Shown here piece after piece: positions 17,765 through 38,238 of a stretch of 64,000 bases of DNA (position 1 is the first letter of the stretch; every line of letters begins with the position of its first letter). The notes beneath the pieces are model-generated. The model had not been told where the DNA came from. It made no database searches and saw nothing but the letters and a program-made list of their open reading frames with translations. Made by a program: the position numbers and the translations under genes. Where the stretch lies: positions 9,237 through 73,236 of the forward strand of contig JBBSXO010000003.1 in assembly GCA_038045705.1 (NCBI GenBank), in the 5' to 3' direction. The stretch comes from Nanobdellota archaeon. GTDB lineage: Archaea > Nanobdellota > Nanobdellia > Pacearchaeales > GW2011-AR1.

Positions 17765-17846
17765 AAAATTACCAGTAAAAAATTCTATTTAAATATAATT
17801 ACTTAAATAAAAAAATAAACAAAACAAAAATAACCAAACTAAAACG

Positions 17847-17976
17847 TCAAACTATCGACGTTTCTTCTTTCTCCCACCACGAGACATTTTAGCTTCACAA
17901 ACATTGCCCTGTGCATCAACATAGTATAAGTAACCGTGTTGGCGCTTAACAATATTCTTCGCAATAATTTTTCCCA
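17847..17976 (-). CDS. Small basic protein (41 aa) absent from the ORF track: MGKIIAKNIVKRQHGYLYYVDAQGNVCEAKMSRGGRKKKRR
   Basis: A GGAGGTG Shine-Dalgarno-like motif lies 4 nt upstream of the ATG. The ORF sits in the Kae1/DUF192 intergenic gap. Basic C-tail. Confidence 0.45.
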
Positions 17977-18058
17977 TAAACACCTCCGACAATCCAAAAA
18001 TCAACCTAATATTTAAATGTTTGTATTTATCGACGGTAAAACGAACTCCAAAAATAAA

Positions 18059-18436
18059 CTAGCGACGATAATATTTTGCCAAAGTTTTAGTACTAACAAA
18101 TTTCTTTACAAGAGGAAAATTAGAATTATTAAGTGGAATTTCTACAATTCTATAAAATTTTCTCTTTTGAGAAATAGAAAAAGTAAATGGTCTGACAATT
18201 TTAAAGCCAATAACTTTATTTTTTTCATCAAGCCATAAAGTCAAAAATGGGAAAAATACAAATAATGATGTTAAATTACCTTGCCAAGTCACTGCTCTTG
18301 AAAAATCAAAGAGCAAAATGCTAGTATCTTTAGTTCTAAAAGTCAAACCTAAACCTCTGCTAAAAAAACCAGTTTGCCTAACGCTGAATTCAATTTTCCG
18401 CCCATTAAAGGAAACGACAAGTCTCATAAATATCAA
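18059..18436 (-). CDS. DUF192 (COG1430)-like protein
   Basis: FFSRGLGLTFRTKD...LLFDF resembles the DUF192 R-x-x-GLM-x-R core. Confidence 0.45.
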   Translation of the reverse strand: MIFMRLVVSFNGRKIEFSVRQTGFFSRGLGLTFRTKDTSILLFDFSRAVTWQGNLTSLFVFFPFLTLWLDEKNKVIGFKIVRPFTFSISQKRKFYRIVEIPLNNSNFPLVKKFVSTKTLAKYYRR

Positions 18437-18735
18437 ATATCTTTCATCTCTGATTTTATCTTAGACATTTTACTAAGCTTATCTGAAACCTTATCAGACC
18501 TACCCTGCAACTCTTTTTTATGCTCCTGGAGTTTTGCCTCTTTTTCAGAGAGACTTGCAAGAAGTTTCTGCATTGCAAGTTCTTTCTGTCTACTTTCAGA
18601 AATACTCGAAGAAGTTTTCTCTATAGATTTCTTTAAAGAGTCTCTTTCCTTACTAAGAGAACTTATCTCACTCTCAAGATCTTTAATTGCACCAGAAAGA
18701 GCAGAACCTTTTTTAACCACCATTTTATCAATCAA
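18433..18735 (-). CDS. Coiled-coil protein, hypothetical
   Basis: Heptad-rich K/E/S/L sequence. Overlaps the downstream gene by 4 nt. Confidence 0.4.
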   Translation of the reverse strand: MIDKMVVKKGSALSGAIKDLESEISSLSKERDSLKKSIEKTSSSISESRQKELAMQKLLASLSEKEAKLQEHKKELQGRSDKVSDKLSKMSKIKSEMKDI

Positions 18736-18751
18736 CCAACGATAAATCTAT

Positions 18752-19759
18752 TTATAAACGTTTCTTTAATTGGTTCGAAAGTTTATCTATTTCACTAATA
18801 GCCGAATCAAAAGAGTTTTTTGAGATATATCTTGAAGAATAAGCTCTATGTAAAACATCTTTTTGAGCTTCTAATTTACGTAATCCTTTAGCAGCATCGC
18901 TAAACTGAGTTTTTTTAATATATTCGATTTCTGATCTCCAGTTCTTAGTTTGCCTAACTGATCTGTTGTACCATAAATAACTAATAAGCATTATAAAAGA
19001 AAGCAAAAATATGAATATGCTCATGTAAATTCTAAAAGAATATTTATTAGTTTCAGGTGGACTCAAAAGCAGATTATTAGAAAGTGAAATCTGATATAAA
19101 TCTAGTCCAAAAGAATTTCCACTTTTAGCAGAAGCAACCATCAAGACTTCATCATGACCATTTGTTCCAAGATTAAAGAAATGTTCAAATGAAGCTTGTC
19201 TTGAAACAGAAACAACTTCTTCAGAGTAACTTAAAAGATCTCCCTCTAAAGAATAAATCGAAAATGCTAAAGCAATACCATTAGATCCAGGATTATTGTA
19301 ATTAAGCTTGTAAACATCGATAATTGGAGAAAGAATAGTCTCTCCAGAAATAACTGAAATATCAGAATTAGCATCAAAATCAATCGAAACATCATATACC
19401 ATTTCAGAACTTCTAGACTCCAGTCCAATAACTACTGGAATGTTTTGAACAATTTCGCTTTCTTTTGAAATAATTAATGTATCAAAATAAACACCCTTCT
19501 CTAACGCACCATTATCCACAATTAAGTTAAAAGAACCAAATTCCTCCTGAGCAACCTCTACAAAGGCAGTTTCAAGTTTAACAGCAGGAGAATTATCTCT
19601 CAAATTAGCAGTGTAACTTCCAGATTCACCAGAATTAAAAAAACTTACTGGAAAAACAGCACTTCCACGAGCGGTTATAATCTCAACAGTATGAGGTGTC
19701 TCTAAACTGCTGACAAAAGACAATGCAAAAAAGATAAAAAATAAAAATAGAGTTTTCAT
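18752..19759 (-). CDS. Type-I membrane surface protein (signal peptide + C-terminal TM + cytoplasmic coiled-coil tail)
   Basis: N-terminal MKTLFLFFIFFALSFVSS, C-terminal IYMSIFIFLLSFIMLISYLWY then a charged tail. Confidence 0.55.
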   Translation of the reverse strand: MKTLFLFFIFFALSFVSSLETPHTVEIITARGSAVFPVSFFNSGESGSYTANLRDNSPAVKLETAFVEVAQEEFGSFNLIVDNGALEKGVYFDTLIISKESEIVQNIPVVIGLESRSSEMVYDVSIDFDANSDISVISGETILSPIIDVYKLNYNNPGSNGIALAFSIYSLEGDLLSYSEEVVSVSRQASFEHFFNLGTNGHDEVLMVASAKSGNSFGLDLYQISLSNNLLLSPPETNKYSFRIYMSIFIFLLSFIMLISYLWYNRSVRQTKNWRSEIEYIKKTQFSDAAKGLRKLEAQKDVLHRAYSSRYISKNSFDSAISEIDKLSNQLKKRL

Positions 19760-20823
19760 TTAATATTTCCTACCAATTTAAATTGTTTTTTATTATTATG
19801 TTTAAAGAATAAAACTGCAAGAAAACAAACAATTAATGCTATGATCATAGCTCCAACAGCTACCCACGTTTGAGGCGTTATCAAAGAATCTGATATCTTA
19901 AAATGAGCTGTTGATGTAGCAAATCCTCCTATATACACTAGTTCAACACCTAGTATATAATCTCCAGGCTCAAGTCCTAGCGTTGAAAATCTCTTACTGT
20001 AACTTTTAGCTCCTCGAACATAAAATGTCTCAGATTCTGTATAACGTACATTTCCGTCAAAATCTTTTATAATATAATTCATAGTAACATCAACACCAGT
20101 TTCACCACCGACTTCTAAAAGTTCTATTAATGCAGGAAGTCTCTGGCCTGCCCTAAGAATACGATATAAATCAGGAACGGTTATTGTCGCATCAAATAAA
20201 ACTCCTTCGCTAACAACATTTAGTAAAACCAGAACTTCTTTTGTAATTCCCTGATAAGTTAATATAATCTTTCCAGCATAAACGCCTGGTTCAGGAGCAT
20301 TTATTGTAAATCTAAGAGGAGCCTTTTGACCAGGTGTTAAAGAAATCAAATCTGTGTTAAAATAAATATAATTATCAATCCCAGTTACACTCACAGTAAT
20401 ATCAATAGCAGTAGAGCCAGTATTCTCTAAAATTAACTCATTAGTTTCACTTTCTCCAGAGATAATCTTAATATTAAAACTCTCTTCACTTACTTTAAAA
20501 TTAGGAGTTGATGAATAACCTCCACTTCCTCCGTCTGACCCTGACCCAGATCCACCTCCAGATCCAGTAGATGAACATGAACCACAATCACTAGAACAAG
20601 AAGAACAAGTTTCAGCGCCATTACACAGTGCATCGCCACACTCTGCCTCAGAACCTTCTACAGTAATGCCAACACTAGCTTCAGAAGATGAATGTGCTAC
20701 TAGTTTAGAATTATAATCATAAACATAAATTCCTATAGAGAAAAACAAACTAAAAAAAGCTAATATTCCAGAAATAACTAAAATAAAAAATAAAGATTTC
20801 TTGATCTCCACCATATATATCAA
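19756..20823 (-). CDS. Membrane-anchored surface protein with a Cys-rich segment and Gly/Ser linker
   Basis: N-terminal TM. CGDALCNGAETCSSCSSDCGSCSS followed by GSGGGSGSGSDGGSGG. C-terminal TM WVAVGAMIIALIVCFLAVLFF. Confidence 0.55.
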   Translation of the reverse strand: MIYMVEIKKSLFFILVISGILAFFSLFFSIGIYVYDYNSKLVAHSSSEASVGITVEGSEAECGDALCNGAETCSSCSSDCGSCSSTGSGGGSGSGSDGGSGGYSSTPNFKVSEESFNIKIISGESETNELILENTGSTAIDITVSVTGIDNYIYFNTDLISLTPGQKAPLRFTINAPEPGVYAGKIILTYQGITKEVLVLLNVVSEGVLFDATITVPDLYRILRAGQRLPALIELLEVGGETGVDVTMNYIIKDFDGNVRYTESETFYVRGAKSYSKRFSTLGLEPGDYILGVELVYIGGFATSTAHFKISDSLITPQTWVAVGAMIIALIVCFLAVLFFKHNNKKQFKLVGNIK

Positions 20824-20866
20824 AAGAAATATAGTATTAAATATGTTCGTAATATGTAATAAAACA

Positions 20867-21277
20867 TCAAGTTAAGCGCATTAATTTGATATTAACATCA
20901 CCAGTGTAATTTCCTAAAAGCTCAAGAGAATTTGCTGAAACAGTAAAGTAAAATTTAGAAGTGTGATAAGGTTCAACAATTAATGGTTCATAAGTAATTA
21001 TCTTTTTTATAGAACCATCAAATTTAGGTTCAACTCTAACAGAAAAAGGATAAGAATTATTTACCAAAATAGATCTAGTTGAACTACCCCCGAGAACAAT
21101 GCTCCCAAAAGTTAAAGCAGTAGAATTAACGTCAAACCCAGCTACGTCTTGCGTAACAAAAGCAGTAGTTTGAAAAGAAAACTCTGAAATAGGAGTTATA
21201 TAATAAAAATAGATAAAAAGAGTCATAACTAAAACAATCAAAGAAATAAAGAATGCAAGCACCAATAAATTTTTCAT
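20867..21277 (-). CDS. Small N-terminally anchored membrane protein (pilin-like?)
   Basis: Single N-terminal TM (LVLAFFISLIVLVMTLFIYFYYI). 136 aa. Confidence 0.4.
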   Translation of the reverse strand: MKNLLVLAFFISLIVLVMTLFIYFYYITPISEFSFQTTAFVTQDVAGFDVNSTALTFGSIVLGGSSTRSILVNNSYPFSVRVEPKFDGSIKKIITYEPLIVEPYHTSKFYFTVSANSLELLGNYTGDVNIKLMRLT

Positions 21278-22389
21278 CTTCTCTTATTCCTGAAAAAGAG
21301 TCTTTTTAAAATGAAGTATAGAACAATAAAGAAGATAATAGCAACAATTGCAGAAACAGAGTAAATAATTAGACTATAATCCTTACCTACAAAAAGACTT
21401 CCATAAATGAAAGTAGATTGACCATGATAGCTTGCATTAAGAAATAAATTATATTTTCCTTCTAAATTATCAGTATCAAGATAACTTTCAATCACTTTCT
21501 CTTCCCAAGGTTCCAAATCTATAGAAGGAGTTCTAAAAACCATACTATAAATATCATTTGTTAAATTAACATCCACATAAGCTCCTAAGACTTTAGAGTT
21601 CCACTTATTTTCCAATGTAACATAAAATTTCTGTATTCCACCTCCAAGAACATAGTTTGTAAAATTAGTTATATTTACAAATAAGGAACCAACTCTAAAA
21701 GATTTGTTAACCTCTCGAGTAATACCTTCATAAGAAACTCTAGCACGACCTATATAATTTCCAGGAACAATACCAGTAGTATCTAAATATTTTCTAAAGT
21801 ATCTCTCGCCAAAGATAGGAATATTTACTGGAGTAAACTCAATCTTTTTTACAGCATTTCCATCACCAGATACAAAATCAACAAAAACACTTTCTATATT
21901 AAGAGGATTATCCCCTCTATTAATAACATGAAGCTCAACAGGTATATTTTCATCTACATTTCCATCTGGAATACTTAAAGATAAATCTCCATAATATCCA
22001 GGATAAGGCACAAAAGTCTTTACAGTAGAACCAACCTCAACAACTGTATTAATAAATGAACTTTCAGAAGGTCTCTCTTTAACACTCACGCTAATTGTGC
22101 TAGTACCAGGTTTATCAAAATCTGTAGGAAATTTTATAGTTAAAATAAAAACTCCATTACCCTTAACAGAATCAACATTAAGAGAAGAATAATCTGCTAG
22201 GTCCCCACCTCTAATACCAACATCATATGTTGAGTATTCCACAGCATCTAAAACATAAAATGTAATATTGACTTCTTGTCCTGGAACAAAGTCTATATTT
22301 TTTATTGCAGGAGATATCCCTAATGCAGAAACATAAGAAATTGAGAAAATAAACAATAAAACTAAAGCAGATTTTCCAACCATCATCAT
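21274..22389 (-). CDS. Type-I membrane surface protein
   Basis: Signal peptide MMMVGKSALVLLFIFSISYVSA. C-terminal TM IIYSVSAIVAIIFFIVLYFIL with an RNKRR tail. Confidence 0.55.
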   Translation of the reverse strand: MMMVGKSALVLLFIFSISYVSALGISPAIKNIDFVPGQEVNITFYVLDAVEYSTYDVGIRGGDLADYSSLNVDSVKGNGVFILTIKFPTDFDKPGTSTISVSVKERPSESSFINTVVEVGSTVKTFVPYPGYYGDLSLSIPDGNVDENIPVELHVINRGDNPLNIESVFVDFVSGDGNAVKKIEFTPVNIPIFGERYFRKYLDTTGIVPGNYIGRARVSYEGITREVNKSFRVGSLFVNITNFTNYVLGGGIQKFYVTLENKWNSKVLGAYVDVNLTNDIYSMVFRTPSIDLEPWEEKVIESYLDTDNLEGKYNLFLNASYHGQSTFIYGSLFVGKDYSLIIYSVSAIVAIIFFIVLYFILKRLFFRNKRR

Positions 22390-22426
22390 TAAAAAACAAA
22401 CTCTATTTTAAATACTTTTTCAGAAT

Positions 22427-23101
22427 TTAAGCTGCAAAGGCAGTCGCGGTAATAGTATCCCCAAGAGCTCCAGTCAAAGAGTCTGAAGGAATCGTCAAAT
22501 TAAAGTCTATACGAACAACATCCCTATCATCGAGAAACTGAAAGTAATTGCAGAATAATGCAGTACTAGTATTAACAATATAGAAGAAATCAGTCTGTAA
22601 AGCGCCAGTACCCCCACTCGCATTTCTACAACTTCCAGATTCAAAACTAGTCACATTCCATCTATACCCTGGACCAGTACCTCCAATCATCTGTGCAGCC
22701 GTCTTTGTACCACTCAAATTAAGCGTAACATTTACATTACCTAAATTTTCAATCCTTAAACCACCAGCGTTCTGTAAAGTCCAATTACCATTAGTCACAT
22801 TACTTGTAGCAAATGTATTTAGACCAGCAGAACTTTGACCAGCATTAACTCTTCCACTTCCCCAGTTAATTTGAGAAGTTGTAAAGTTAATTGTAACAGT
22901 AGATTCAACAGTCAAATTAGCTTCTCCAATACTTGTAGCATGTCCTGATATTGTGCTAAACAATGTTCTAGCAGAAAGGTAAAATACAGCAACAGAGAAC
23001 AATGAAATCACAAAAACAAAAACAGCAAAGATAACAATTATCTTAGAGTTTCCTTCAACCACCATAATCCGCTCCATTTTCAAAACCATTCCCTTCAACA
23101 A
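22427..23101 (-). CDS. N-terminally anchored secreted protein, many N-x-S/T sequons
   Basis: TM KIIVIFAVFVFVISLFSVAVFYL. Numerous NxT/NxS sites. Confidence 0.45.
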   Translation of the reverse strand: MLKGMVLKMERIMVVEGNSKIIVIFAVFVFVISLFSVAVFYLSARTLFSTISGHATSIGEANLTVESTVTINFTTSQINWGSGRVNAGQSSAGLNTFATSNVTNGNWTLQNAGGLRIENLGNVNVTLNLSGTKTAAQMIGGTGPGYRWNVTSFESGSCRNASGGTGALQTDFFYIVNTSTALFCNYFQFLDDRDVVRIDFNLTIPSDSLTGALGDTITATAFAA

Positions 23102-23267
23102 CTAGACCAACATTTCCAGCATTTGAGGAATAAGAAATTTTATTAAGATAATTATCTGAATTTATATTATAAATCATCAAATTAAAAACAACTGAAGTAA
23201 CAGACAAAACTAAAGTAATCATAAGAAGAACAACCACCACTCTTTTCAAACTAGCCATAGCTAACAA
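23055..23267 (-). CDS. Small pilin-like membrane protein (uncertain)
   Basis: MLAMASLKRVVVVLLMITLVLSVTSVVFNLM N-terminal hydrophobic segment. 70 aa. Overlaps the previous ORF. Confidence 0.25.
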   Translation of the reverse strand: MLAMASLKRVVVVLLMITLVLSVTSVVFNLMIYNINSDNYLNKISYSSNAGNVGLVVEGNGFENGADYGG

Positions 23268-23293
23268 AATAAGCCATTATATTTAAACGTTTC

Positions 23294-24490
23294 TTATTTT
23301 TTCTTAATTTTTCTCCTTAAGAACAGAAACCACGTCAAATTGAGCAAAACAAGAACCGCAACTGCTATAATCAGTACTGTTACAAGAGAATCACTTTGCT
23401 TCGTATTCGCAGATTTTATAACATAACCTACCCCTATTACTGAAATATCATTTTCAGAAACATCTAAAGTAAGATCCTTTTGAATAGAACTTTGTCCAAA
23501 ATTAATAAATGCTTTTGCATCATAATTACCAACACGAACACCTTCAGTATCCCAGAAAGAAACAAGTAACTTACTCGAAAATGAATCTATTTTATAGGTT
23601 GCAGATTTAAAATCAGCCATTATTTCTCCATCTTGATTAAACACTTGCATAGATATATAAGCATCTTCGATAGGAGAGTTAAGACTATTCTCAACTAAGA
23701 ATTCAAATTTAGCTATTTCCCCAAGGCTAAAATCATTTACTTCAACACTTTTAAGTTCTAAACTATCTTTGCCAACAGAAAATTCCTTCTCTAAAGTCAG
23801 AGTAGATTCATCATACAAAACAGTAGCAAATGCCCTATATCTTCCAAAGGGTATCGATGTAGTATCCCATTCAACAGCAAGTTCTTTTCTCTCACCACTT
23901 AAAACTTCAATTTCCTGCGTCGAAAGAGAGATAACTTTTTCATTTAAAGGCGTATAAATATCTATCACTGCTCTTGCTCTGACAATATCAAGTTTACCTT
24001 TACTAACTAAGGGCATAACAAATGCTATCTTACCACTATTAGTTGTGCTTACACTCAAAGCAGATTCAGCATATTTACCTGGATAAGGCACGTCAACTAA
24101 TATCTTAGTCGCGATTCCAACAATAGAACCAATATAGGTTGGAGAAGATGAAGAAGATGTATCCGGAACTTCAGTTACAACAATATCAGCATAATGAGCC
24201 CCAGGAGAAAGTCCAGAGGGAATTTTTACAGAATATTTTATAGTTACACTAGGAGTTTCAGGAGTAAGAGTAACATAATACTGCGAAAGAGCAACACTTT
24301 GGCTCAATTCTCCCTCTGGAAGTATAACTAAATTAACCCTTTTATTTTCAGAATTAATTATATCAAACGAAAAAGTTTGTTCAGTTCCAGGTTCGTAACC
24401 AAGAATCTTCTGAGCAGGAGTTATTCCAAAAGCAGAAGAAATAGGAAAGACAATAAAAAATAAAATAAAAAATAAAATAAATTTATTCAT
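23294..24490 (-). CDS. Type-I membrane surface protein
   Basis: Signal peptide MNKFILFFILFFIVFPISSA. C-terminal TM LVTVLIIAVAVLVLLNLTWFLFL with an RRKIKKK tail. Confidence 0.55.
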   Translation of the reverse strand: MNKFILFFILFFIVFPISSAFGITPAQKILGYEPGTEQTFSFDIINSENKRVNLVILPEGELSQSVALSQYYVTLTPETPSVTIKYSVKIPSGLSPGAHYADIVVTEVPDTSSSSSPTYIGSIVGIATKILVDVPYPGKYAESALSVSTTNSGKIAFVMPLVSKGKLDIVRARAVIDIYTPLNEKVISLSTQEIEVLSGERKELAVEWDTTSIPFGRYRAFATVLYDESTLTLEKEFSVGKDSLELKSVEVNDFSLGEIAKFEFLVENSLNSPIEDAYISMQVFNQDGEIMADFKSATYKIDSFSSKLLVSFWDTEGVRVGNYDAKAFINFGQSSIQKDLTLDVSENDISVIGVGYVIKSANTKQSDSLVTVLIIAVAVLVLLNLTWFLFLRRKIKKK

Positions 24491-24923
24491 TTTCTACCCC
24501 CGTATAAGCAATTGAAGAATTGATAAGTGAACCAGTTTCATAAACATCAACTTGTAATGTTGAGTCACCTAAATTAAAAACACCAATTGTTCCATCTTCA
24601 AGCGCCCTAAATTGCAAAACAACTGTTAATTCTAAATTAATCTCACGAATCTCACCTTTCAATCCATCAAAAAATTTTATAAAATATTTGCCTTCTTTCA
24701 GACTAATAGTTTCATTAATAAATATAGTTTCAGGGGAATTAAATCTGGAATTATCATCTATAAGAATATAATCTACAGAAGGTAAAACAAAAAGAAGTGT
24801 TTCATATTCCGAAGTCAAAGGAGAAATTACCAAAGGAGGAGTATATCCAACAAGAAAAAATATTGCAGATAAAAATCCAAATAAAAGTATAGCATCAACA
24901 ATTAACAGTTTTTTATAGTCCAT
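24483..24923 (-). CDS. Small N-terminally anchored membrane protein
   Basis: TM LLIVDAILLFGFLSAIFFLVGY. 146 aa. Confidence 0.4.
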   Translation of the reverse strand: MDYKKLLIVDAILLFGFLSAIFFLVGYTPPLVISPLTSEYETLLFVLPSVDYILIDDNSRFNSPETIFINETISLKEGKYFIKFFDGLKGEIREINLELTVVLQFRALEDGTIGVFNLGDSTLQVDVYETGSLINSSIAYTGVENE

Positions 24924-24924
24924 T

Positions 24925-27900
24925 TTAATAAGTATCTCCGCTACCTAATTCTATTGTAAAAGTTATAGTTGAGGATTTAACGCCGGGACCATCAGACGAA
25001 GGAACAGTTACATTAATATCAACTTCAACACTATCCGTTGTATCAGCATACTTCAAGTCTACAAGATCTGAAATGTCATCAGCAACTAACGGAATATTGC
25101 TATATCCTATAATTGTTTCAGTCCAATTAAATGATCCATTTTCAGAAATTCCATTAGTAGTAACATTATCAAATTTAAATTTATAATTATCTGTAGGATT
25201 AGTTACACTTTGCCAAAGACTAGTTCCTTCAACATCAATATCATTTAAAACATTACCTTCATTTATTAAAATAAATGGTTTAGGAAAATTATCCGAAGTA
25301 TCATTATTCTTCAAATATCCCAAATTTCCAAATTCTATCAAACTTATATTCATAACTATGTTAATATACGCCTGTACTTTCAAATTAAATGGATCAGAAT
25401 ATGAACCAAAAGAACCATCTGAAGCAGAAACACTCCATCTGTAAGAGTCTAAATTATCAAAAAGGCAATTAAGTGGATTTCCTAAATCTAAAAGAGTAAA
25501 GGATAAGGAATTTCCAAACTCATAACCAGTACCACCATTATAATTAGAGTCAACGCAAGTAGACTGCGCAATTAATGAGATATTAACTGTATAATTCTTA
25601 ATAGCATCTCCATCATCATCGCTAGCAACCCATGTAAAGTTTTGATTTGTACGATTAATTGTTGAAGACCCATTAGCTGGCGCAATTAAACTAACATTAG
25701 GTAAAGAATTCAAAATAGTTAAATTACTAGAATTTACATTAAAATTGTTAAGAGGATCATATATTGTCAACCCAACAGACCAATTATGTCCTTTAGTTGT
25801 ATTTCCATCATCAAGAGTGGCAATAAATGTAGTCCCATTAGAATAACTTAAATTATAAGCTTGAGTAAGATGAAGAATACTATTATTATACCATCTTACT
25901 GTAACATTCATAGTATCGTTATTTAAGTCGAGTAATGTTGTTCGGACATTCAAATCTTCCAAAGTTCTATTCAGTCCAAGAGTAGAATTCAGAATTAGAG
26001 CAGTTCCATTGTAAGGAATGTTATTAATTCTAAACGTTCTTGTCTGACTTGTTGCAATATTTTGAGTAGTATCGGCACAAGTTACATTCCATCCATGAGT
26101 CCCACTAGAAAAACCAACAACACTAAGATTAACCATACTACCAGAAGGAGAATTAATGTTTGATGAATTTACTAAATTATCTATTGTCAAATTACAAGAC
26201 ATTGTAGAAGAATGATCATCTGTAGCCGTCCAATTAAATGATAAGCTACTCCCAAAACTAAAATTGGAATCGTTCAAAGGTTGATTTAAAGCAATTGATG
26301 GTGGGCTATCTTGTTCAAAAGTTATTGTATAATAAGGTGCATATGTACCATTAGCACCACTGCCTAAAGCCCTAAGACTCCATAAATAGGATTCACTAAA
26401 ACATGAAACTGAAACAGATATTGAATGCTGGCTAACTGCACCTAAAGATTCTATGTTTTGTCCATTATATTGAGAATCTTCACAAAGACTGTTTATGGAA
26501 AGATTAAACTGCAAACCAGTAATTTCATCAAGATCATCGTCACTATGAGCAAAATAAAATGTCTGGTCACTTGTATTATAACTTAAAGAGTCATTAGCTG
26601 GAGATATTAAAGTAACATTAGGTAAAGAATTCAAGATAGTTAAATTACTAGAATTTACATTAAAATTATTAAGAGAGTCATATATTGTCAACCCAACAGA
26701 CCAATTATGTCCTTTAGTTGTATTTCCATCATCAAGAGTGGCAATAAATGTAGTCCCATTAGAATAACTTAAATTATAAGCTTGAGTAAGATGAAGAATA
26801 CTATTATTATACCATCTTACTGTAACATTCATTGTATTGTTGTCTAAATCAAGTAATGTTGTTCGAACATTCAAATCTTCCAAAGTTCTATTTAATCCAA
26901 GGGTAGAATTCAGAATTAAAGCAGTCCCATTATAAGGGGCAGAGTCTCCACTAATAACTGTAACATTATAATTTATCAAACTTTGTGAATAGTTTTGAGT
27001 CTGAGCGTAAGAAACAGTGATATTGTAAATTCCAATTCCACTAAATGAAGTTAAATTGCTTACTTCAGTAGGTCGTTGATTAATGAGTGTCCCATTGTTA
27101 TATAATTGAAGATTTCCTCCAGGATCTCCCAAAATTAAAGTTCCATTCAATAAAATACTCCCTCCACTAGAAATCGTAATATTTGATTGGGTTCCATTCA
27201 AAGTTAAATTTAATTGACTAGTATTTCTAGCAATAACATAATTTCTAGTTCCAGAAATATTATATGTAGAACCAGGTCCATAAGACCACCAGTAATAAGA
27301 GTATGTTCCTGCAGCAATATTAGCAATCGTAGAGTTAAACATGGTTGCAGATAAATTTGAGACACTCCTATTAGTTCCATTAAATTCAAAACCAGCGGTA
27401 CCATTTGAGTCAGTTATAGTTATATTAAAAGCATAAACCGCATTATTGACATAAGCAGAATTATTTAGAATGGTTTCATTAAATAAACCAAACACAGGTG
27501 TGAATGGACAATTACCATCCCATAAAGTACCGTTAAGCCAATAAGTCTTTGTTATAGACTTATCTGAAGAATTTGTATATGTTATTACCCATGTTTCATT
27601 ACATAAAGACATCCCAGTAGCAGGATTCTTACCAACAGCATAATATAAAGCAGGAGCAGTATTAGCAAAAGATTCAACAATAAAGTTTTGAGTTACCATA
27701 GTTCCAGAACCATTGTAAGCAACAGCAACAATATCTCCAGCAGACTGATTAAAATAAGCAACTACAAAATTATCTGAATTTGTGCTTTTATTAAACACTG
27801 TTGCAATAGACAGCCTAGAAGAAGATCCTACTGCAGTATCTACATCAGTAGCAGATAGAATAGAATTTCCTGCGAGATCATTTATCGCAATAGTAATATC

Positions 27901-30876
27901 CTGTTCACCCTGATCATACCAAGCTAACACATATTTATCATTATCAATTGTAGCACTAGCAACCTGCGCAGCAGTTCCAACAGCACTATCTATAGCAGTA
28001 TCAGTAACAACTTCCGTTCCTGCATGATCAACTAAGTGATATATCGCATCATCATCACCTCCAGCATCATAATCTACAGCAACAAGGCTAGTAGCATTTA
28101 CAACATCACAATCAGCTCTATCTTGTAATCCACCTTCTGGAACTACTGCAGCATTGACATCTGTTTCAGTTCCAATAAGAGTACCAGTTTGTGCATCAAA
28201 TCTTATCATATCTAAGTCTCCTTCAGTTGAGTCTACATAACAATAAGCAATTAAAGTTGTATTAAATGCAGTCAAAGCAATCTCATGTAATGCAGTACCT
28301 ATAGAACCATCGGTAGTTACAGGACTGAAATAATAAGTTCCATCAGTTTTAAAACCAGCTCTCCACTCAGCAGAAGTATTTGTCCAGCCAATTACAAAAA
28401 AAGTAGAGTTGATGCTAGCTACAGCAACTCTTGTTACGTTATTAGTCCTGTTATAACCATCACCACTTCCAGTAGCAATAGTTACTGGTTGTAAGATAGT
28501 TGTACCATCAGTATTCATTATTTGAAACTGAACAGTATTACCAGTTCTATTTAGATAAGTCATTACGTAACTTTCAGAAGTTAATGGAGCTAAACCAACA
28601 TCTCCAAGAAAACCATTCAATGCAGTAGACGGATCTATAATATGATCAAATTCAACCTCCCCGCCTGTAACAAGCAAATCAAAAGTATCTTGATTTCTAT
28701 CTCCAAGATTGTTCAAATATATTTTATTATATTCATTTTCAGTTAAATTATAAAATCGCGCAAGAGATTCATTTGAGTCTTTCTCAAAAACATTTATAAT
28801 AATATCAGATATATTTGTACCATTAGTTGCACGAGAATAAATAGTAATATCATTGATAGATGTTAAATTGGTTTCAAAAGTCACCCTTACATAATGTCCA
28901 TCAGGAATAGATTCACTCCAAATGTTATCTAATTCTCTGGTTTCATTATAAATATTTGAAATAAAACCATAAGTTTCATTAAGGTGTTGAGCATCAATTA
29001 TAACAATTATATTAAAAGTTTGATTACTTAAATGAGGAGCAATCCATTGAATATAATCATAATTTCCATCATTATTAGAGTCATTTATAGAAAAGACTTC
29101 CAAGATAGAATTATTTTCTACCCATTCTATGACAATGGAAGAAGAATCTTTTAATTCAAGATTATCAGAAAGATTTGTAAAAACAAGAACATTTTCATAA
29201 TGCACATCAGCAGGACTTGAAACATGTAATGTTTTTTGAGTAAAATCTAATATGTTTTCTTTAACAGCAGGAGCATCAGTATAATATTCCACTTCAACCC
29301 CCAAATCAGATTGTTGAAGCTCAATAGAAATTTCTTGAACATCAACTCCTAATTCTTCAACAACATTCCCCGTAATACTGAAAAATTTAAGTATTTTAGA
29401 GAAGAAAGAATCAAGATTTGCATCTTTCTCCGCGCTAATATCAGCAGTAACTTCCCCATTTATTCCAACAAATAAGTTTGAGATAGAAGTTTCAGCAATG
29501 CCAGAGATTTCATGAGACTCATTTAAATCAGAAGTTATTTTATTAATTGTGATATTCTCTGCACTAGCTGGTACCTCAATAGTCAAATTTAAACTATCGT
29601 TTAATTCCAAAGAAACTGTCTTAGTCCATCTAACTGGTTGTCCAATAACTGCTGTAAATTGTTTTGTTTTAACATCAACTGAAGTTTCATTAAAAAATGT
29701 TTTATTTATCTCAGTCATATTTTCAATAATTGTCTCATTTGTCAAAGTTTGATTAATAATAGATTCATTTAATATTGCGATATCCAAATCAGACTCGATA
29801 ACTTCAGCTTCAAATAATTCTTCATTTAAAATAGTTATATCTTCAGAAGCTTCGACAATGACATTTCCTTGATAAATCAAGGAGATAGTTAATTTATCTT
29901 CTTTATCCGCAATCAATTCAAGAGCACCCATATCAATAATTATTTCTTCACTTTCATCAGAAATATAATCTTCTCCAAATCCTTCTCTCTCTATATAATA
30001 ATCAGTAGATACAATTAATTCATCATTCTTTATTTTAAATTCAACATCCTCGTCATTTAAAGAGTTCCCATCATAAGAAACACTTCCTTCAATAAGAGAA
30101 GCAGTTTCGCTATCAGACAGAACATAAGAAAATGCATTTTCTTTAGAAGTCTGACCATTTATAATTTTCAGATCTGAAATAGCATCTCCAGTTATAATTG
30201 AATCAGAAGATTCTAAAGAGCTTTCTTCGGTAGACTCAGTACTTTCAGCCTCAGTCTCAGGTTCTTCAGGACTACTTTCACTAGTTGATCCATCACCAGT
30301 TTGTTGAATTTCCTCATTTGTTTGTTCTTCAGGAATAATCTCAGACTCGTCAGAATTAAATGATTCAGAGCCTACATTCTCTTCAATCTTAATTATAGAA
30401 AAATCAAAATCAACAAACGGATATTCAATTACCTTTCCTGGGACTCCATAACCTTCACCACTTCCAGATAAAGAAACACCTTCTGCATAGAATTCTCCGT
30501 AAACAAGTTCATCAGAAACTAATTCAGATAAATTAAATATTTTCGAAGTATTTCCGTAAGCAACTAAAACTAAAGAGTTAGATGGAATAAGTTCTCCATG
30601 AAATAAATCAAATCTAAGCACACCATTAATTGACTCACCAAAATTATAATTCTTATCTATATCCAGAGATACATTCCCAGTAAAACTAAATGAAAAAAAG
30701 TAAAATGCCAAAAAAATAATTGCAAATATCAAAAAGCCTTTTAGTAAAATTTTATCATTATTTCTCAAACCAGAACCTAAATAAGTAGTTACAACTTTGC
30801 CATTAATACGTCTAGTCTCATAATAATAAGGACCAAACCTCTTACCATTTTTATAAGTATATTTTTTGTGTACCAC
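24925..30876 (-). CDS. Giant (1983 aa) N-terminally anchored cell-surface protein, extremely rich in N-glycosylation sequons, with an internal duplicated ~112-aa module
   Basis: N-terminal TM LLKGFLIFAIIFLAFYFFSFSF. By eye, far more than 100 N-x-S/T sites. Two near-identical PYNGTALILNSTLGLNRTLEDLNVRTTLLDL...LPNV modules. Confidence 0.8.
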   Translation of the reverse strand: MVHKKYTYKNGKRFGPYYYETRRINGKVVTTYLGSGLRNNDKILLKGFLIFAIIFLAFYFFSFSFTGNVSLDIDKNYNFGESINGVLRFDLFHGELIPSNSLVLVAYGNTSKIFNLSELVSDELVYGEFYAEGVSLSGSGEGYGVPGKVIEYPFVDFDFSIIKIEENVGSESFNSDESEIIPEEQTNEEIQQTGDGSTSESSPEEPETEAESTESTEESSLESSDSIITGDAISDLKIINGQTSKENAFSYVLSDSETASLIEGSVSYDGNSLNDEDVEFKIKNDELIVSTDYYIEREGFGEDYISDESEEIIIDMGALELIADKEDKLTISLIYQGNVIVEASEDITILNEELFEAEVIESDLDIAILNESIINQTLTNETIIENMTEINKTFFNETSVDVKTKQFTAVIGQPVRWTKTVSLELNDSLNLTIEVPASAENITINKITSDLNESHEISGIAETSISNLFVGINGEVTADISAEKDANLDSFFSKILKFFSITGNVVEELGVDVQEISIELQQSDLGVEVEYYTDAPAVKENILDFTQKTLHVSSPADVHYENVLVFTNLSDNLELKDSSSIVIEWVENNSILEVFSINDSNNDGNYDYIQWIAPHLSNQTFNIIVIIDAQHLNETYGFISNIYNETRELDNIWSESIPDGHYVRVTFETNLTSINDITIYSRATNGTNISDIIINVFEKDSNESLARFYNLTENEYNKIYLNNLGDRNQDTFDLLVTGGEVEFDHIIDPSTALNGFLGDVGLAPLTSESYVMTYLNRTGNTVQFQIMNTDGTTILQPVTIATGSGDGYNRTNNVTRVAVASINSTFFVIGWTNTSAEWRAGFKTDGTYYFSPVTTDGSIGTALHEIALTAFNTTLIAYCYVDSTEGDLDMIRFDAQTGTLIGTETDVNAAVVPEGGLQDRADCDVVNATSLVAVDYDAGGDDDAIYHLVDHAGTEVVTDTAIDSAVGTAAQVASATIDNDKYVLAWYDQGEQDITIAINDLAGNSILSATDVDTAVGSSSRLSIATVFNKSTNSDNFVVAYFNQSAGDIVAVAYNGSGTMVTQNFIVESFANTAPALYYAVGKNPATGMSLCNETWVITYTNSSDKSITKTYWLNGTLWDGNCPFTPVFGLFNETILNNSAYVNNAVYAFNITITDSNGTAGFEFNGTNRSVSNLSATMFNSTIANIAAGTYSYYWWSYGPGSTYNISGTRNYVIARNTSQLNLTLNGTQSNITISSGGSILLNGTLILGDPGGNLQLYNNGTLINQRPTEVSNLTSFSGIGIYNITVSYAQTQNYSQSLINYNVTVISGDSAPYNGTALILNSTLGLNRTLEDLNVRTTLLDLDNNTMNVTVRWYNNSILHLTQAYNLSYSNGTTFIATLDDGNTTKGHNWSVGLTIYDSLNNFNVNSSNLTILNSLPNVTLISPANDSLSYNTSDQTFYFAHSDDDLDEITGLQFNLSINSLCEDSQYNGQNIESLGAVSQHSISVSVSCFSESYLWSLRALGSGANGTYAPYYTITFEQDSPPSIALNQPLNDSNFSFGSSLSFNWTATDDHSSTMSCNLTIDNLVNSSNINSPSGSMVNLSVVGFSSGTHGWNVTCADTTQNIATSQTRTFRINNIPYNGTALILNSTLGLNRTLEDLNVRTTLLDLNNDTMNVTVRWYNNSILHLTQAYNLSYSNGTTFIATLDDGNTTKGHNWSVGLTIYDPLNNFNVNSSNLTILNSLPNVSLIAPANGSSTINRTNQNFTWVASDDDGDAIKNYTVNISLIAQSTCVDSNYNGGTGYEFGNSLSFTLLDLGNPLNCLFDNLDSYRWSVSASDGSFGSYSDPFNLKVQAYINIVMNISLIEFGNLGYLKNNDTSDNFPKPFILINEGNVLNDIDVEGTSLWQSVTNPTDNYKFKFDNVTTNGISENGSFNWTETIIGYSNIPLVADDISDLVDLKYADTTDSVEVDINVTVPSSDGPGVKSSTITFTIELGSGDTY
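25692..26030. repeat. Intragenic duplication, copy 1 (~340 nt, near-identical to 26613-26951)
   Basis: Long identical strings are shared with copy 2 (taacattaggtaaagaattcaa...ccatcttactgtaacattcat). Confidence 0.8.
26613..26951. repeat. Intragenic duplication, copy 2 (offset 921 nt, in frame)
   Basis: Same as copy 1. Divergence is seen only at the edges. Confidence 0.8.
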
Positions 30877-30969: not shown

Positions 30970-31359
30970 TTACAAGATTTTTTGCTTAAATTCAAGATTC
31001 CTATGCAATTTATCTATATTTTCTTCACAAACAAAATCATGTTGCCTAAATCCACCACCAAAGGTTTTAGGAATATGGAGGAGTTCATGTATTATTACCT
31101 TATCCTGATTAATCTTATTCAATTTATCAAACTTTTCAAGAAACTCTATTGTATAAAAAGCATTAGTTTTCATCCCTTTCTGCATAACTTTACCTATAGT
31201 GTGGCAACGAGCAATAGTTCTTTTAGTACTACTTCCAAAACTTCTTAAACATTCAACTCTCTCAAGATTAATATGATCCATCTTAAGAGCGTTAACTATC
31301 TCAACAAGCCTCTCTTTCAAATCAGGAGCATAATCATATTTCATATCATCACTAACCAA
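30970..31359 (-). CDS. HExxH zinc-metallopeptidase-like protein (SprT/Wss1-like)
   Basis: HELLHIPKTFGGGFRQHDF motif. 129 aa. Confidence 0.4.
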   Translation of the reverse strand: MVSDDMKYDYAPDLKERLVEIVNALKMDHINLERVECLRSFGSSTKRTIARCHTIGKVMQKGMKTNAFYTIEFLEKFDKLNKINQDKVIIHELLHIPKTFGGGFRQHDFVCEENIDKLHRNLEFKQKIL

Positions 31360-32784: not shown

Positions 32785-32888
32785 AAAACAATCATAAAAT
32801 CTAGTATTTTAATTGTTTCCTATCAGACAACTTCAATTTTAATAGAACTCTTAAGTATATTTATAAGTAAGTTATTCTCATAGACATA

Positions 32889-33422
32889 ATGAAAAACAAG
32901 ATAATTATTTTACCAGCATTAGCAATTTTAATGCTATTTGTAATAATGGGAGTAGCATCAGCTTGTTCATGTATATATCTAGAGGATACACAAGCAAGAA
33001 TCGAGAATGCAGACTATGTATTCACAGGAAAGATATCTGAGATAAGATTATCAGGTTCAGAATATAATAAAGAACAGGAAGCTACAATTAGAATAACGCA
33101 ATATTGGAAACCATCAAGTTTCCCAGAATCAGTAAATCTCATATTTTATTCCACAAGAGATACAGGAGCTAACTGTGGATATAATTTTGAAGAAGGAAAA
33201 GAATACCTTATTTATGCAAGTTTAGACGCTGAAACAGGTAAAATCTCAACAAACTCTTGCATGGGAAATTTATTACTAGAAGAATCAAAAGATGAAATAA
33301 ACGAGCTTAATGACTTAATTGAACCAGTTTCAAGACCAGGAACGAATGATGGAAAAGTAGAGCCTATTCAAAAAAGTGTCTTTTCAAGATTAATTGATTG
33401 GATAAAGAGTCTATTTTCTTAA
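32889..33422 (+). CDS. Secreted TIMP-like (N-TIMP/NTR OB-fold) domain protein
   Basis: Signal peptide ends ...GVASA|CSC. The mature N-terminus is Cys-Ser-Cys, with Cys at mature positions 1, 3, 71 and 99. NADYVFTGKI and GKEYLIYAS are the blocks I align to my recollection of TIMP-2. Confidence 0.55.
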   Translation: MKNKIIILPALAILMLFVIMGVASACSCIYLEDTQARIENADYVFTGKISEIRLSGSEYNKEQEATIRITQYWKPSSFPESVNLIFYSTRDTGANCGYNFEEGKEYLIYASLDAETGKISTNSCMGNLLLEESKDEINELNDLIEPVSRPGTNDGKVEPIQKSVFSRLIDWIKSLFS

Positions 33423-33473
33423 TTCTAGTAAACCGAAACATTAAAAAGAACTATTTATGATTTGATACTATCG

Positions 33474-33602
33474 AGCCCATAGCTCAGCCCGGTTAGAGCA
33501 CTGCTCTTATATGATTGTGCTTCACAAGAAGCATAAGTTCAAGCTATAAAGCTAACAGCTAAGAACAGCAGGGGTCCCAGGTTCAAATCCTGGTGGGCTC
33601 AT
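33474..33602 (+). tRNA. Intron-containing tRNA, probably tRNA-Ile(UAU) (54-nt intron after position 37)
   Basis: Acceptor gagccca/tgggctc, D-stem gctc/gagc, anticodon stem ctgct/agcag, loop cttata|intron|c, T-arm ccagg-ttcaaat-cctgg. The anticodon depends on canonical intron placement. Confidence 0.6.
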
Positions 33603-33658
33603 TAAAAACAGTATTTGAACACAACAATCATTTTAAACGAAAAACATTAACTCAAAAC

Positions 33659-34072
33659 ATGGGAGATGGAAGACCTAGACCTTTAAAAGGAGGAATGTTT
33701 GCATTTGCATATTCTTTTCTTTCAAGTGTGAGATATTTAGTAAATGAGGATTATCAAATTCCTCATAGATCCAATCCAGATTTACATAAATCATTAGAAA
33801 GAGCTTTGGAAGAAGCACCACAAGATCTCAAAGAGATGTTTCATTTCAGAGGTAGCGTGTTTAGTATGTCTGAAGAGTTAGATGATTTAATAACCATAGG
33901 CCAAGATGCAATGCTTATAGAAACAGCAGATAGAGGCTATAAAATAACATTTTCTAGATGGAATGCAAAAGATATATTAAAAGAAAGTAGATATGATAAG
34001 GAACAAATAGGAGCAATCCAATCCCTTGCAAAAAGATTTGTAGAAAATTTAGCACAACCAAGAACTAATTAA
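33659..34072 (+). CDS. Hypothetical protein (start moved to an internal ATG; the ORF-track start overlaps the tRNA)
   Basis: MGDGRPRPLKGGMF... No motif recognised. Confidence 0.4.
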   Translation: MGDGRPRPLKGGMFAFAYSFLSSVRYLVNEDYQIPHRSNPDLHKSLERALEEAPQDLKEMFHFRGSVFSMSEELDDLITIGQDAMLIETADRGYKITFSRWNAKDILKESRYDKEQIGAIQSLAKRFVENLAQPRTN

Positions 34073-34475
34073 AAGGACTAAAACCTTTTTTCAACAAATT
34101 TTCAATTGGTAAAAATAGAGGTTTAGGTAATTGATTCCAACTAAACCATTTCCATTCTTCACATTTTTCAGGCTCCATAATTCTAACCTCGCCACTAACA
34201 TAATCACCAATCAAAAACAAAGTGATGTAATGTTTTCCTTCAGAAATATGCAAGTCATTAGTAAATGTTGCAAATTTTAAATTCTCAATATTAATTCCAG
34301 CTTCCTCTAGAATCTCACGTTTAGCACATTCCTCAACTTCTTCATTAAATTCTAAGTGTCCTCCAGGAAAAGACCAAGTTCCATTACCATGTAAGCTTTT
34401 GCGCTTACCTAGAAGAACCTTGCCGTCTTTAACGACTATTGCGGCAACTCCAACTTTAGGCCCATTATCAATCAT
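34065..34475 (-). CDS. NUDIX hydrolase
   Basis: Nudix box GGHLEFNEEVEECAKREILEEAGI. Confidence 0.85.
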   Translation of the reverse strand: MIDNGPKVGVAAIVVKDGKVLLGKRKSLHGNGTWSFPGGHLEFNEEVEECAKREILEEAGINIENLKFATFTNDLHISEGKHYITLFLIGDYVSGEVRIMEPEKCEEWKWFSWNQLPKPLFLPIENLLKKGFSPFN

Positions 34476-36512: not shown

Positions 36513-36770
36513 ATGGAAGTTAAAATAATAAAAGTCACAGATAAGGGTCAGATCTCTTTGCCTATTAGTATGCGTCAATCTTTGGGAATTAATCAAGGAG
36601 ATGATTTAATAGTGACTAGAGCAGATGACTGTGTAATAATAAAGAAAGTGAAAAAAGAGGATTTTAGAGATTTGCTAAAACTTTCAGAGCTTTCTCTCAA
36701 AGAAATCTGGGATAACAAAGAAGACGATATTTGGAATGATTATTTAAAACCAGAGAAGTCTAAAAAATGA
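36513..36770 (+). CDS. mazE: AbrB/MazE-type antitoxin
   Basis: IIKVTDKGQISLPISMRQSLGINQGDDLIV swapped-hairpin signature. Overlaps mazF by 4 nt. Confidence 0.7.
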   Translation: MEVKIIKVTDKGQISLPISMRQSLGINQGDDLIVTRADDCVIIKKVKKEDFRDLLKLSELSLKEIWDNKEDDIWNDYLKPEKSKK

Positions 36771-37105
36771 ACGTTAAACAACAAGATTTAGTTTTAGTTC
36801 CTTATCCATTCACTAATCTCAAAGAGGAAAAAGTAAGGCCAGCAGTCATTCTTTCTAATGAGTCTTATAATAAACAATCAAAAGATTGCATTGCACTACC
36901 TTTAACATCAGTAATTAATGAAAATCCATTTTCTATTCTTATTTCACAAAATGATATGCAAGATGGAAACTTAATCAAACAGAGCAGTATCCGTACCGAT
37001 AAAATTTTTAGTGTTCAGAAAAACTTAATTCGAATGCGAATAGGTTCCCTAAAGAAATCAGTATTTGATAAAGTCAGAGATGAATTATTTAGAATAATCC
37101 AATAA
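36767..37105 (+). CDS. mazF: MazF/PemK-family endoribonuclease toxin
   Basis: DLVLVPYPFTNLKEEKVRPAVILSNESYN...CIALPLTS. Confidence 0.75.
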   Translation: MNVKQQDLVLVPYPFTNLKEEKVRPAVILSNESYNKQSKDCIALPLTSVINENPFSILISQNDMQDGNLIKQSSIRTDKIFSVQKNLIRMRIGSLKKSVFDKVRDELFRIIQ

Positions 37106-37159: not shown

Positions 37160-37657
37160 CTATTTCTTTCGAGTAACCACAATCATAGGACGTAAACGCA
37201 AATCATTCTTTGACTTAATATATTCACCTTTGAAATCGAACCATACCTTGCTAAAAGTACTCAAAGAAATCTTCTTATAATGTGCATCTTCAGGATCAAT
37301 AAAATATACATTTAATTTATCAATGCCAACAACAACGGAATAATGTCCCTCATTTTCATAAAACCAGTTAATTATAACTGGAATCTTTTTAATTACAACA
37401 AATTCACGCAATTGAGCTAAATTAGAATTTTCTATGTATTTTACATTAAACCCGTAATGTTTTGCTGCATTAACCATATCAAACGGGCTAGTTCCAACAT
37501 TAGTATCATTAACAATAGTACCTGCTACCTTAGCAATTTCTTTCTCATCAATTTCTTTTCCATAATAATCAAAGACCATCTTTAAACAAAAAGGTCCACA
37601 ATAAGAAGGAGTTTGACGCATAGGTTTGACATTTAACATAAAGTAAAAAACATTCAA
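37160..37657 (-). CDS. Peptidase C39-like cysteine peptidase domain protein (free-standing)
   Basis: QTPSYCGPFCLKMVFDYYG (catalytic Cys context) and HYSVVVG (His). Confidence 0.55.
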   Translation of the reverse strand: MNVFYFMLNVKPMRQTPSYCGPFCLKMVFDYYGKEIDEKEIAKVAGTIVNDTNVGTSPFDMVNAAKHYGFNVKYIENSNLAQLREFVVIKKIPVIINWFYENEGHYSVVVGIDKLNVYFIDPEDAHYKKISLSTFSKVWFDFKGEYIKSKNDLRLRPMIVVTRKK

Positions 37658-37668
37658 TAGTTTAAAAA

Positions 37669-38238
37669 TTATACTAGATCTTTAACTTTCCTATGGTAAA
37701 TAAATCCTAAAATTAAACCAAAAAACATACCAGATAAATGTGCAAGATTTGCAACATTACTTGGAACAAACAACCCTATCAAATCTCCTGCTGCCCATAT
37801 TATTCCAGCAATAAAAAGGGGCATGGGAAATCCAAATGCCCAAACAAACATCAAAGGGCGAATAGCAACTAAAGCACCGATAACTCCAAAAATAGCTCCA
37901 CTAGCCCCAAGAGAAGAATTATAAAAATTAACAGAAACAATATTAGCGAGCAACCCAGTAACGAAAAATACCATCAAGAATCTTTTACTTCCAAGAAATC
38001 TCTCAAGCATACTGCCAAAAAAAGCAAGAGCAAAAGTGTTGTAAAGCAAATGGGCAAATCCTCCATGTAAAAATATAGCTGTCAAAAACCTCCAGATCTC
38101 AATATAAGAATCAGAATTAAGTAAAAATAAATCAGTAAAACTATCAAACATAAGTTGCATCAAAAAAACCAAAAGCATCCATCCACAAAGTTTTAGAGCG
38201 TAAAAGCGAAATCTATCTTTTCTAGCCATTATAAACAA
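37669..38238 (-). CDS. Rhomboid-family intramembrane serine protease
   Basis: GASGAIFG (Gx-S-G) and AHLSG His. ~6 TM helices. Confidence 0.8.
   Translation of the reverse strand: MFIMARKDRFRFYALKLCGWMLLVFLMQLMFDSFTDLFLLNSDSYIEIWRFLTAIFLHGGFAHLLYNTFALAFFGSMLERFLGSKRFLMVFFVTGLLANIVSVNFYNSSLGASGAIFGVIGALVAIRPLMFVWAFGFPMPLFIAGIIWAAGDLIGLFVPSNVANLAHLSGMFFGLILGFIYHRKVKDLV

Follow-up and report, generated by a model that had tools for sequence, protein, structure and literature searches.

The N-terminal inhibitory domains of the vertebrate tissue inhibitors of metalloproteinases TIMP-1, TIMP-2 and TIMP-3 (Pfam PF00965, MEROPS I35) follow a signal peptide and begin with the tripeptide Cys-Ser/Thr-Cys. 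In TIMP-2, the disulfides C1–C72 and C3–C101 fasten this inhibitory N-terminal segment to the barrel of the domain. Many domains that have the related NTR fold, such as agrin NtA, complement C345C and the NTR domain of PCOLCE, are not known as TIMP-type inhibitors. A prokaryotic metzincin inhibitor, AprI/Inh of Pseudomonas and Serratia, is a functional analogue only: its fold is unrelated to TIMP, and it is encoded beside its own protease.

The way in which AprI/Inh binds its protease is reported to resemble that of TIMPs (PMC8235301). The same paper, published in 2021, notes that bacterial proteins with structural similarity to TIMPs had not been recorded, and describes Listeria monocytogenes Tim, an envelope-anchored lipoprotein with an LTAC lipobox and a predicted TIMP-like fold, which is of phage origin and whose gene invariably accompanies one for a metzincin (PMC8235301). 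Two reviews present TIMPs as ‘expressed in all Metazoa’ and as arising ‘early during metazoan evolution’, and prokaryotes are unmentioned in both (PMC9409782, PMC4860685). A previous reading of the DNA analysed here, made from the sequence alone (the sequence-only reading), had likewise remarked that TIMP and NTR domains are mainly known from animals; this is true of the literature, but not of the sequence databases, which hold thousands of prokaryotic members. A literature search found no description of a prokaryotic TIMP-like family. What is new here is TIMP homology visible at the sequence level in an archaeon, which leads, through profile searches, to thousands of unstudied prokaryotic relatives.

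The archaeal protein is encoded in a 64-kb stretch of DNA, called the window below, by a complete plus-strand open reading frame of 177 amino acids plus stop (positions 32889–33422). Its product is 100% identical to the protein AABX23_02025, named ‘hypothetical protein’ at NCBI, from a metagenome-assembled genome of a Nanoarchaeota archaeon, which agrees with the small-genome archaeon first suggested as its source. A TATA-like box, TTTATAA (32860–32866, plus strand), lies 23 nucleotides before the ATG and is a putative archaeal promoter, from which a monocistronic transcript with a short leader or none would start. The gene and its neighbour for an Obg-like GTPase are transcribed away from each other, and a tRNA gene lies downstream. 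Relatives keep the order of a GTPase gene, the TIMP-like gene in the reverse orientation to it and a Methyltransf_33 gene, and this synteny persists as far as a homologue of 42–44% identity on a 663-kb contig. The GC content of the gene (31.3%, with 18.5% at third codon positions) is like that of the window. Conserved homologues, synteny and window-like composition together indicate that the gene is established and vertically inherited in its lineage, and a recent horizontal transfer into the genome is not supported.

A TIMP relationship had been proposed on the basis of sequence features, and it is borne out by profile searches. The protein matches the Pfam TIMP profile PF00965 with 23.5 bits against a curated gathering cut-off of 23.1 (E=5.4e-5), with residues 25–124 aligned to profile positions 2–107 of 183. 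For a single sequence, a pass of 0.4 bit over threshold is borderline, and we therefore tested the whole family. Two profiles of the same fold class as TIMP remain sub-threshold for the window protein, namely NTR (PF01759; 17.9 bits against a cut-off of 21.9) and agrin NtA (PF03146; 11.9 against 25.1). Among 116 relatives, PF00965 is matched by 69, whereas NTR is matched by only 8 at E≤0.01. A direct search of PDB sequences with the single protein gave no match, and the TIMPs are reached only by a family profile: when built from an alignment of the 116 sequences and searched against all PDB sequences, this profile returned fifteen matches, all of them to TIMP-1, TIMP-2 or TIMP-3. The best is to TIMP-2 (E=6.6e-11), in an alignment that begins at residue 1 of the mature inhibitor.

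The same correspondence is found in pairwise comparison. BLASTP aligns the mature window protein with the TIMP-2 N-domain at 28% identity over 99 residues, with all four cysteines paired, and an hhalign profile alignment gives the same register. This identity is about as high as that between the window protein and most bacterial members of its own family (20–33%). Two blocks that the sequence-only reading had matched to TIMP-2 are recovered by BLASTP, with which the profile agrees, as NADYVFTGK on NADVVIRAK and G--KEYLIYAS on GGKKEYLIAGK. The window protein has in common with TIMP N-domains the blocks NAD-V/Y-V, ‘SA-x-CG’ and ‘KEYLI’, in addition to a predicted OB barrel with two helices. We consider it very probable that the protein is a true TIMP-family homologue with a TIMP-type fold.

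The cysteines carry much of this correspondence. The predicted mature protein starts with Cys1-Ser2-Cys3 (C26, S27 and C28; 32964–32972), which align with TIMP-2 residues 1–3. The two remaining cysteines are Cys96 (mature Cys71; 33174–33176), in the motif GANCGYNF, and Cys124 (mature Cys99; 33258–33260), in the motif TNSCMG; they are aligned to SSAVC72GVSL and HITLC101, respectively, and so are the equivalents of TIMP-2 Cys72 and Cys101. All four are confirmed at the codon level (tgt at 32964–66, tgt at 32970–72, tgt at 33174–76 and tgc at 33258–60), and all four are in register with TIMP-2 C1, C3, C72 and C101. The cysteine spacing in which the sequence-only reading had seen the TIMP N-domain pattern thus corresponds to homologous positions in the alignments, and the cysteines at these positions are invariant.

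Thirty homologues (158–187 amino acids, 42–61% identity) have S24, A25, C26, C28 and F45 invariant, and likewise C96, G97, Y106, Y109, C124, W171 and F176, and S27 is conserved at 90% or more. Because the cysteines are invariant in these homologues, and because CxC follows the signal peptide in nearly all inspected members of the family, the CSC start and the cysteine arrangement are not a chance occurrence. The family consensus ‘SAxCG’ ahead of the third cysteine also resembles ‘SSAVCG’ of TIMP-2. Judged from the alignments, the residues that are important for inhibition by TIMPs are exactly those that are conserved in the prokaryotic family.

There are also clear differences from the vertebrate proteins, besides the prokaryotic host. 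The prokaryotic family carries four conserved cysteines only, and the third disulfide of the TIMP N-domain (Cys13–Cys124/126; C13–C126 in TIMP-2) is missing, with TIMP-2 Cys13 aligned to a non-cysteine position. The C-terminal domain of TIMPs, with its three further disulfides, is absent as well; after residue 143 there are only a linker and a 13-residue helix. A bacterial relative (P0058) that seemed to hold a full two-domain TIMP was rejected on inspection, as its long Pfam match extends into unrelated Cys-rich repeats.

Modelling places the fold in the same class. Residues 26–143 (about 118 residues; 32964–33317) are predicted to form a five-stranded OB-type β-barrel with flanking helices, which is the N-domain fold that had been anticipated. 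The top eight Foldseek matches of the model are all TIMPs. In fold comparison the highest score, 13.2, is with N-TIMP-3 from its complex with TACE (2.4 Å over 111 residues), followed by the PCOLCE NTR domain (11.2), agrin NtA (10.7), TIMP-1 (9.8) and the meteorin NTR domain (9.6), with generic OB folds at 8.4 or less. Lone N-domains, N-TIMP-1 and N-TIMP-3, are present in solved inhibitor–protease complexes (2j0t and 3cki).

The domain is N-TIMP-like, as the sequence-only reading proposed, but it is not free-standing, because a linker comes after it and the protein then ends in an amphipathic helix that is conserved. The linker (residues 144–164; 33318–33380) is poorly conserved, of variable length and low complexity, and probably disordered, with pLDDT <50 at mature residues 125–138 of the AF2 model. 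The helix (residues 165–177, VFSRLIDWIKSLFS; 33381–33419) is predicted by AF2 at mature residues 140–151. It is 13–14 residues long and has the clade consensus NIFsKFFsWLKNLFS, with W171 and F176 being the invariant positions among the 30 homologues. Its hydrophobic moment of 0.65 is reached by only 0.2% of shuffled sequences, and no other open reading frame of the window has such a tail.

At the same position most bacterial relatives have a transmembrane helix and a basic tail; in the wider family, this kind of C terminus occurs in 85 of 168 representatives and in 83 of 105 genome loci. Longer family members carry SLH or PG_binding_1 domains, and a few have weak matches to LPXTG-anchor models. 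The FFxWxKxLFS helix ends the proteins of the Nanoarchaeota clade and of an unplaced set of metagenomic relatives. Given these transmembrane anchors, SLH, PG_binding_1 and LPXTG-type modules and amphipathic tails, cell-surface display is a trait of the family. The window protein itself would be tethered to the membrane or surface through its amphipathic helix.

The relatives that share an ‘ACSC’ start form one family with the window protein and share its four cysteines and its cleavage-site pattern. A profile search covering 1.84 billion cluster representatives (clustered at 50% identity), in which the best 150 matches were inspected, returned 9,377 clusters at E≤1e-3, a total that may hold some eukaryotic TIMPs and in which signal peptides raise the scores, and 1,794 clusters at E≤1e-10. 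Genome loci were found with the degenerate DNA pattern ACSC-N42-[AV]VF[ST]G[KE]V, where N42 stands for 14 residues. This pattern occurs in at least 120 species-representative genome loci, and the matches listed are mostly from Bacillota. Also among those listed are Chloroflexota, Acidobacteriota, Planctomycetota, Verrucomicrobiales, Myxococcales, Actinomycetota, Synechococcus, Bacteroidota, Elusimicrobia and Patescibacteria, together with two archaea, a Nitrosopumilus and a Woesearchaeota archaeon.

These proteins are named ‘hypothetical protein’ at NCBI, and NCBIfam has no model for the window protein or for any of the 116 relatives. At UniRef, some have been named automatically ‘Tissue inhibitor of metalloproteinase’, including Gracilibacillus kekensis A0A1M7QB34 and proteins of Lederbergia and Lysinibacillus species. 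Sequence databases have already flagged bacterial members through Pfam, which makes their existence less surprising. A search of viral folds in BFVD gave no match at E≤0.001, and tblastn with a bacterial member gave no phage match and three ‘plasmid’ matches, two of which lie in records of 5.5 and 11.9 Mb. With no phage matches and essentially none on plasmids, the family is not obviously mobile.

The surroundings of the family were searched for a partner protease. Across 105 loci from bacteria and archaea, with 434 neighbours up to three genes away on either side, no protease gene is a conserved neighbour, and neither these loci nor the window has a metzincin beside the gene. When the 434 neighbours were clustered, the largest recurring cluster comprised 7 of the 105 loci, and none of the seven HExxH-bearing neighbours resembles a secreted protease. 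Nor does a partner recur among seven neighbourhoods that were annotated for relatives from bacteria and CPR. The sole HExxH protein of the window is a 129-residue metallopeptidase (PF18894) encoded two genes upstream; it was rejected as a target because it lacks a signal peptide and because L001, the most distant of the relatives with conserved synteny, does not encode it. Among the large secreted proteins of the window, none has a protease domain. The gene is best viewed as an orphan, whose target may be foreign, belonging to a host, competitor or predator, or may be encoded elsewhere in the genome.

The lack of a conserved protease partner in the 105 loci is also what would be expected of a non-inhibitory binding module. 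The TIMP/NTR-type OB domain would then be exposed on the cell surface and attach to a protein or glycan, much as agrin NtA attaches to laminin, and if the cell is an ectosymbiont, as DPANN archaea may be, this ligand might sit on the surface of the host cell. The putative surface tether of the protein fits such a role, as does a window rich in large secreted proteins of unknown function. At the sequence level, however, the family profile matches TIMPs only, and not NTR or NtA chains. The NTR modules of netrins and complement C345C are internal or C-terminal and have no free Cys1, whereas the TIMP mechanism accounts for the near-absolute placement of CSC at the predicted cut and for the conserved Ser2, neither of which generic binding would need. 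We regard a binding module as unlikely, but as the most probable of the alternatives.

A second alternative is that, in a reducing habitat, the spatially clustered cysteines 1, 3, 71 and 99 are reduced and hold Cu, Zn or Fe, so that the protein serves in metal buffering or resistance at the surface. This idea derives from a single Paceibacterota locus (L008), in which the gene is in an operon with a CsoR-type repressor, a DUF411 protein, two P-type ATPases and a MacB-type efflux pump, and from another relative (L011) with a P-type ATPase 2 kb downstream. The operon link was down-weighted because the pattern does not recur among the 434 neighbours of the 105 loci, which include no P-type ATPase with a DKTGT motif and one MxCxxC protein only. 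The clade of the window gene, moreover, sits in a housekeeping neighbourhood. The cysteines occupy exactly the positions of the TIMP disulfides, and many members come from aerobic Bacillota, in which exported cysteine pairs would be expected to be oxidized. A metal-binding function is thus improbable.

The remaining alternatives concern the way in which the protein is processed. The Sec-type signal peptide comprises residues 1–25 (32889–32963) and has the n-region MKNK, a hydrophobic core of 18 residues and the c-region A-S-A, consistent with the secreted protein ending its signal peptide in VASA that was originally described. Cleavage is predicted between A25 and C26, which would leave a mature protein starting CSCIY. 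In 173 of 176 inspected family sequences, CxC directly follows the signal peptide, and the −3/−1 rule for type I signal peptidase holds for all but one of these (172/173). Of the 173, 164 have Ala at −1 and 163 have A, V, T or S at −3; CxC stands at +1 in every one, and the second mature residue is Ser in 158 and Thr in 4 (162/173). Exposure of Cys1, on which the proposal of a TIMP-like inhibitor depends, is thus the predicted outcome of cleavage across the family. On profile matches, predicted fold and Cys1 exposure, the three grounds on which the sequence-only reading could have failed, the results do not refute it.

If Cys26 were instead lipid-modified, with xSAC serving as a lipobox, there would be no free N terminus and no Cys1 disulfide, and a TIMP mechanism would therefore be impossible. 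A +1 cysteine after small residues does fit a loose lipobox, some members read V-S-A-C, 31 of the 173 sequences pass the strict pattern, and Listeria Tim, the one protein published as ‘TIMP-like’ from bacteria, is itself a lipoprotein (PMC8235301). Against this, the residue at position −2 varies among the 173 sequences and is bulky in many of them (S, Y, F, L, N, H or Q), and this position, with A, V, T or S at −3, gives a type I signal peptidase signature rather than L-[AS]-[GA]-C. The window protein has Ala at −3 and no strict lipobox. The family already has a separate C-terminal anchor, and lipidation would not explain why mature Cys71, the partner of Cys1, is invariant. By its residue pattern, the cleavage site in the family is of the type I signal peptidase type and not a lipobox, and we consider lipidation very improbable.

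Listeria Tim is also the precedent for a substrate or pro-factor, since its metzincin Mtz cleaves it and releases a TIMP-like fragment (PMC8235301). By analogy, a metalloprotease might cut the tethered window protein in its flexible linker, an accessible site between domain and anchor, and so free a fragment that acts on the envelope of its own or a neighbouring cell; this is highly doubtful given that neither the window locus nor the 105 others has an adjacent metzincin gene, that phage and viral searches found no relatives, and that Tim resembles TIMPs in structure only. As this resemblance does not extend to sequence, and as Tim has a lipobox, Listeria Tim belongs to a different family. Both are prokaryotic proteins with a predicted TIMP-like fold, anchored to the envelope in Tim and probably so in the window protein. 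Unlike Tim, the window protein has sequence-level TIMP homology and a type I signal peptidase-type site, its gene does not lie beside a protease gene, and the searches found no relatives in phages.

We lean modestly towards the view that the product of the window gene, a homologue of the animal TIMP N-terminal inhibitory domain, is exported, stays tethered to the cell surface and acts in a TIMP-like manner on a zinc metalloprotease. Under this model, the protein would be exported by the Sec pathway and cut by type I signal peptidase after Ala25, which would create a free α-amino group on Cys26 (mature Cys1), and the domain would fold as a TIMP/NTR-type OB barrel. Disulfides Cys1–Cys71 and Cys3–Cys99 would then pin the N-terminal segment beside the loop that precedes Cys71 (GAN-C-G), forming a wedge-shaped ridge like that of TIMPs. 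The flexible linker and the C-terminal amphipathic helix would keep the domain on the outside of the cell, at the membrane or S-layer.

From this position, the ridge could insert into the active-site cleft of a zinc metalloprotease, where the amino and carbonyl groups of Cys1 would chelate the zinc and Ser2 would enter the S1′ pocket, such that catalysis is blocked. TIMP-like zinc chelation by a free Cys1 is the most likely mechanism. For the narrower proposal that the protein inhibits a metalloprotease by the TIMP mechanism, the analysis suggests roughly an even chance.

Most bacterial ‘ACSC’ members end in a transmembrane helix and basic tail, or carry SLH or PG-binding domains, and the Nanoarchaeota clade ends in the FFxWxKxLFS helix; the vertebrate TIMPs have neither this linker and amphipathic helix after the domain nor the transmembrane anchor that replaces the helix in bacteria. 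A tentative possibility, which we think could well prove wrong, is that the TIMP N-domain is an ancient and very widespread prokaryotic surface-anchored module, with a free N-terminal CSC that blocks zinc proteases, that animals acquired it later and extended it with a C-domain, and that in host-dependent DPANN archaea such as the one studied here it shields the symbiont surface or the zone of host contact from metalloproteases.

If the family does inhibit metalloproteases, it would represent a major and so far unrecognized means by which microbial communities control extracellular proteases, and a source of compact inhibitor scaffolds with two disulfides, and it would be relevant to how the TIMP/MMP system of animals evolved. 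If the shielding role in symbiosis were also true, host-dependent DPANN archaea would have their first described protease-inhibitor system.

The TIMP-like gene is followed by an intron-containing tRNA gene on the forward strand (window 33473-33601), which is matched by the Rfam tRNA model with a score of 56.5 bits (E=7.5e-12). The match places a 55-nt insertion after position 37, and ARAGORN makes no call for this intron-containing gene. Because the anticodon loop reads CU-UAU-A, the gene probably encodes a tRNA-Ile(UAU), judging from its sequence. In most archaea, AUA codons are instead read by a tRNA whose CAU anticodon is modified.

Two genes (window 33593-34475) separate the tRNA gene from the Methyltransf_33 gene that lies downstream of the TIMP-like gene in the conserved gene order. 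These are an unknown ORF on the forward strand (33593/33659-34072), for which a Pfam search returned no match, and a NUDIX hydrolase gene on the reverse strand (34065-34475). Neither gene is found in the syntenic loci of the relatives (L001 and L003-L006), and this segment may represent a small insertion adjoining the tRNA gene.

Relatives of the TIMP-like gene also occur in other settings. A CPR example from Paceibacterota (GCA_040904155.1, locus L008, 8001-8579) resides inside an operon that encodes CsoR, DUF411, P-type ATPase and MacB-type efflux proteins, which is the sole metal-related context observed. The 462-aa protein P0037, from an ENA metagenome, carries three TIMP-like repeats in tandem, wherein only the first presents CSC at the signal-peptide cut and the internal repeats begin with CPRC and CPPC. 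A Nitrosopumilus relative (locus L018, 831-3302) is an 823-aa protein with a single, N-terminal TIMP-like domain.

The window also encodes proteases. A small gene on the reverse strand (30970-31359) matches PF18894, 'putative phage metallopeptidase', and its product carries the motif HELLH...H and lacks a signal peptide. This gene occupies the same position in close relatives and is missing from that position in L001, the most distant syntenic locus. Its product is probably a cytoplasmic housekeeping protein with no relation to the TIMP-like gene. Furthermore, at 37160-38229 on the reverse strand, a Peptidase_C39-like cysteine protease gene adjoins a rhomboid protease gene, and the two are kept as a pair in relatives L003 and L005.

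By sequence motifs alone, two small pairs of overlapping genes resemble toxin-antitoxin modules: a nucleotidyltransferase-like gene with a HEPN-like partner (4302-4921, reverse strand) and an AbrB/MazE-like gene with a MazF-like partner (36513-37105, forward strand).

Finally, a run of roughly nine genes on the reverse strand (13133-29931), most encoding N-terminal hydrophobic segments, encodes among others a 1207-aa and a 1668-aa product, both essentially devoid of Pfam matches. A single weak Ig-like match belongs to a smaller gene of this run. A protein of around 1700 aa is kept at the equivalent position in relatives L003 and L006. This run could constitute a surface or attachment apparatus of the symbiont.
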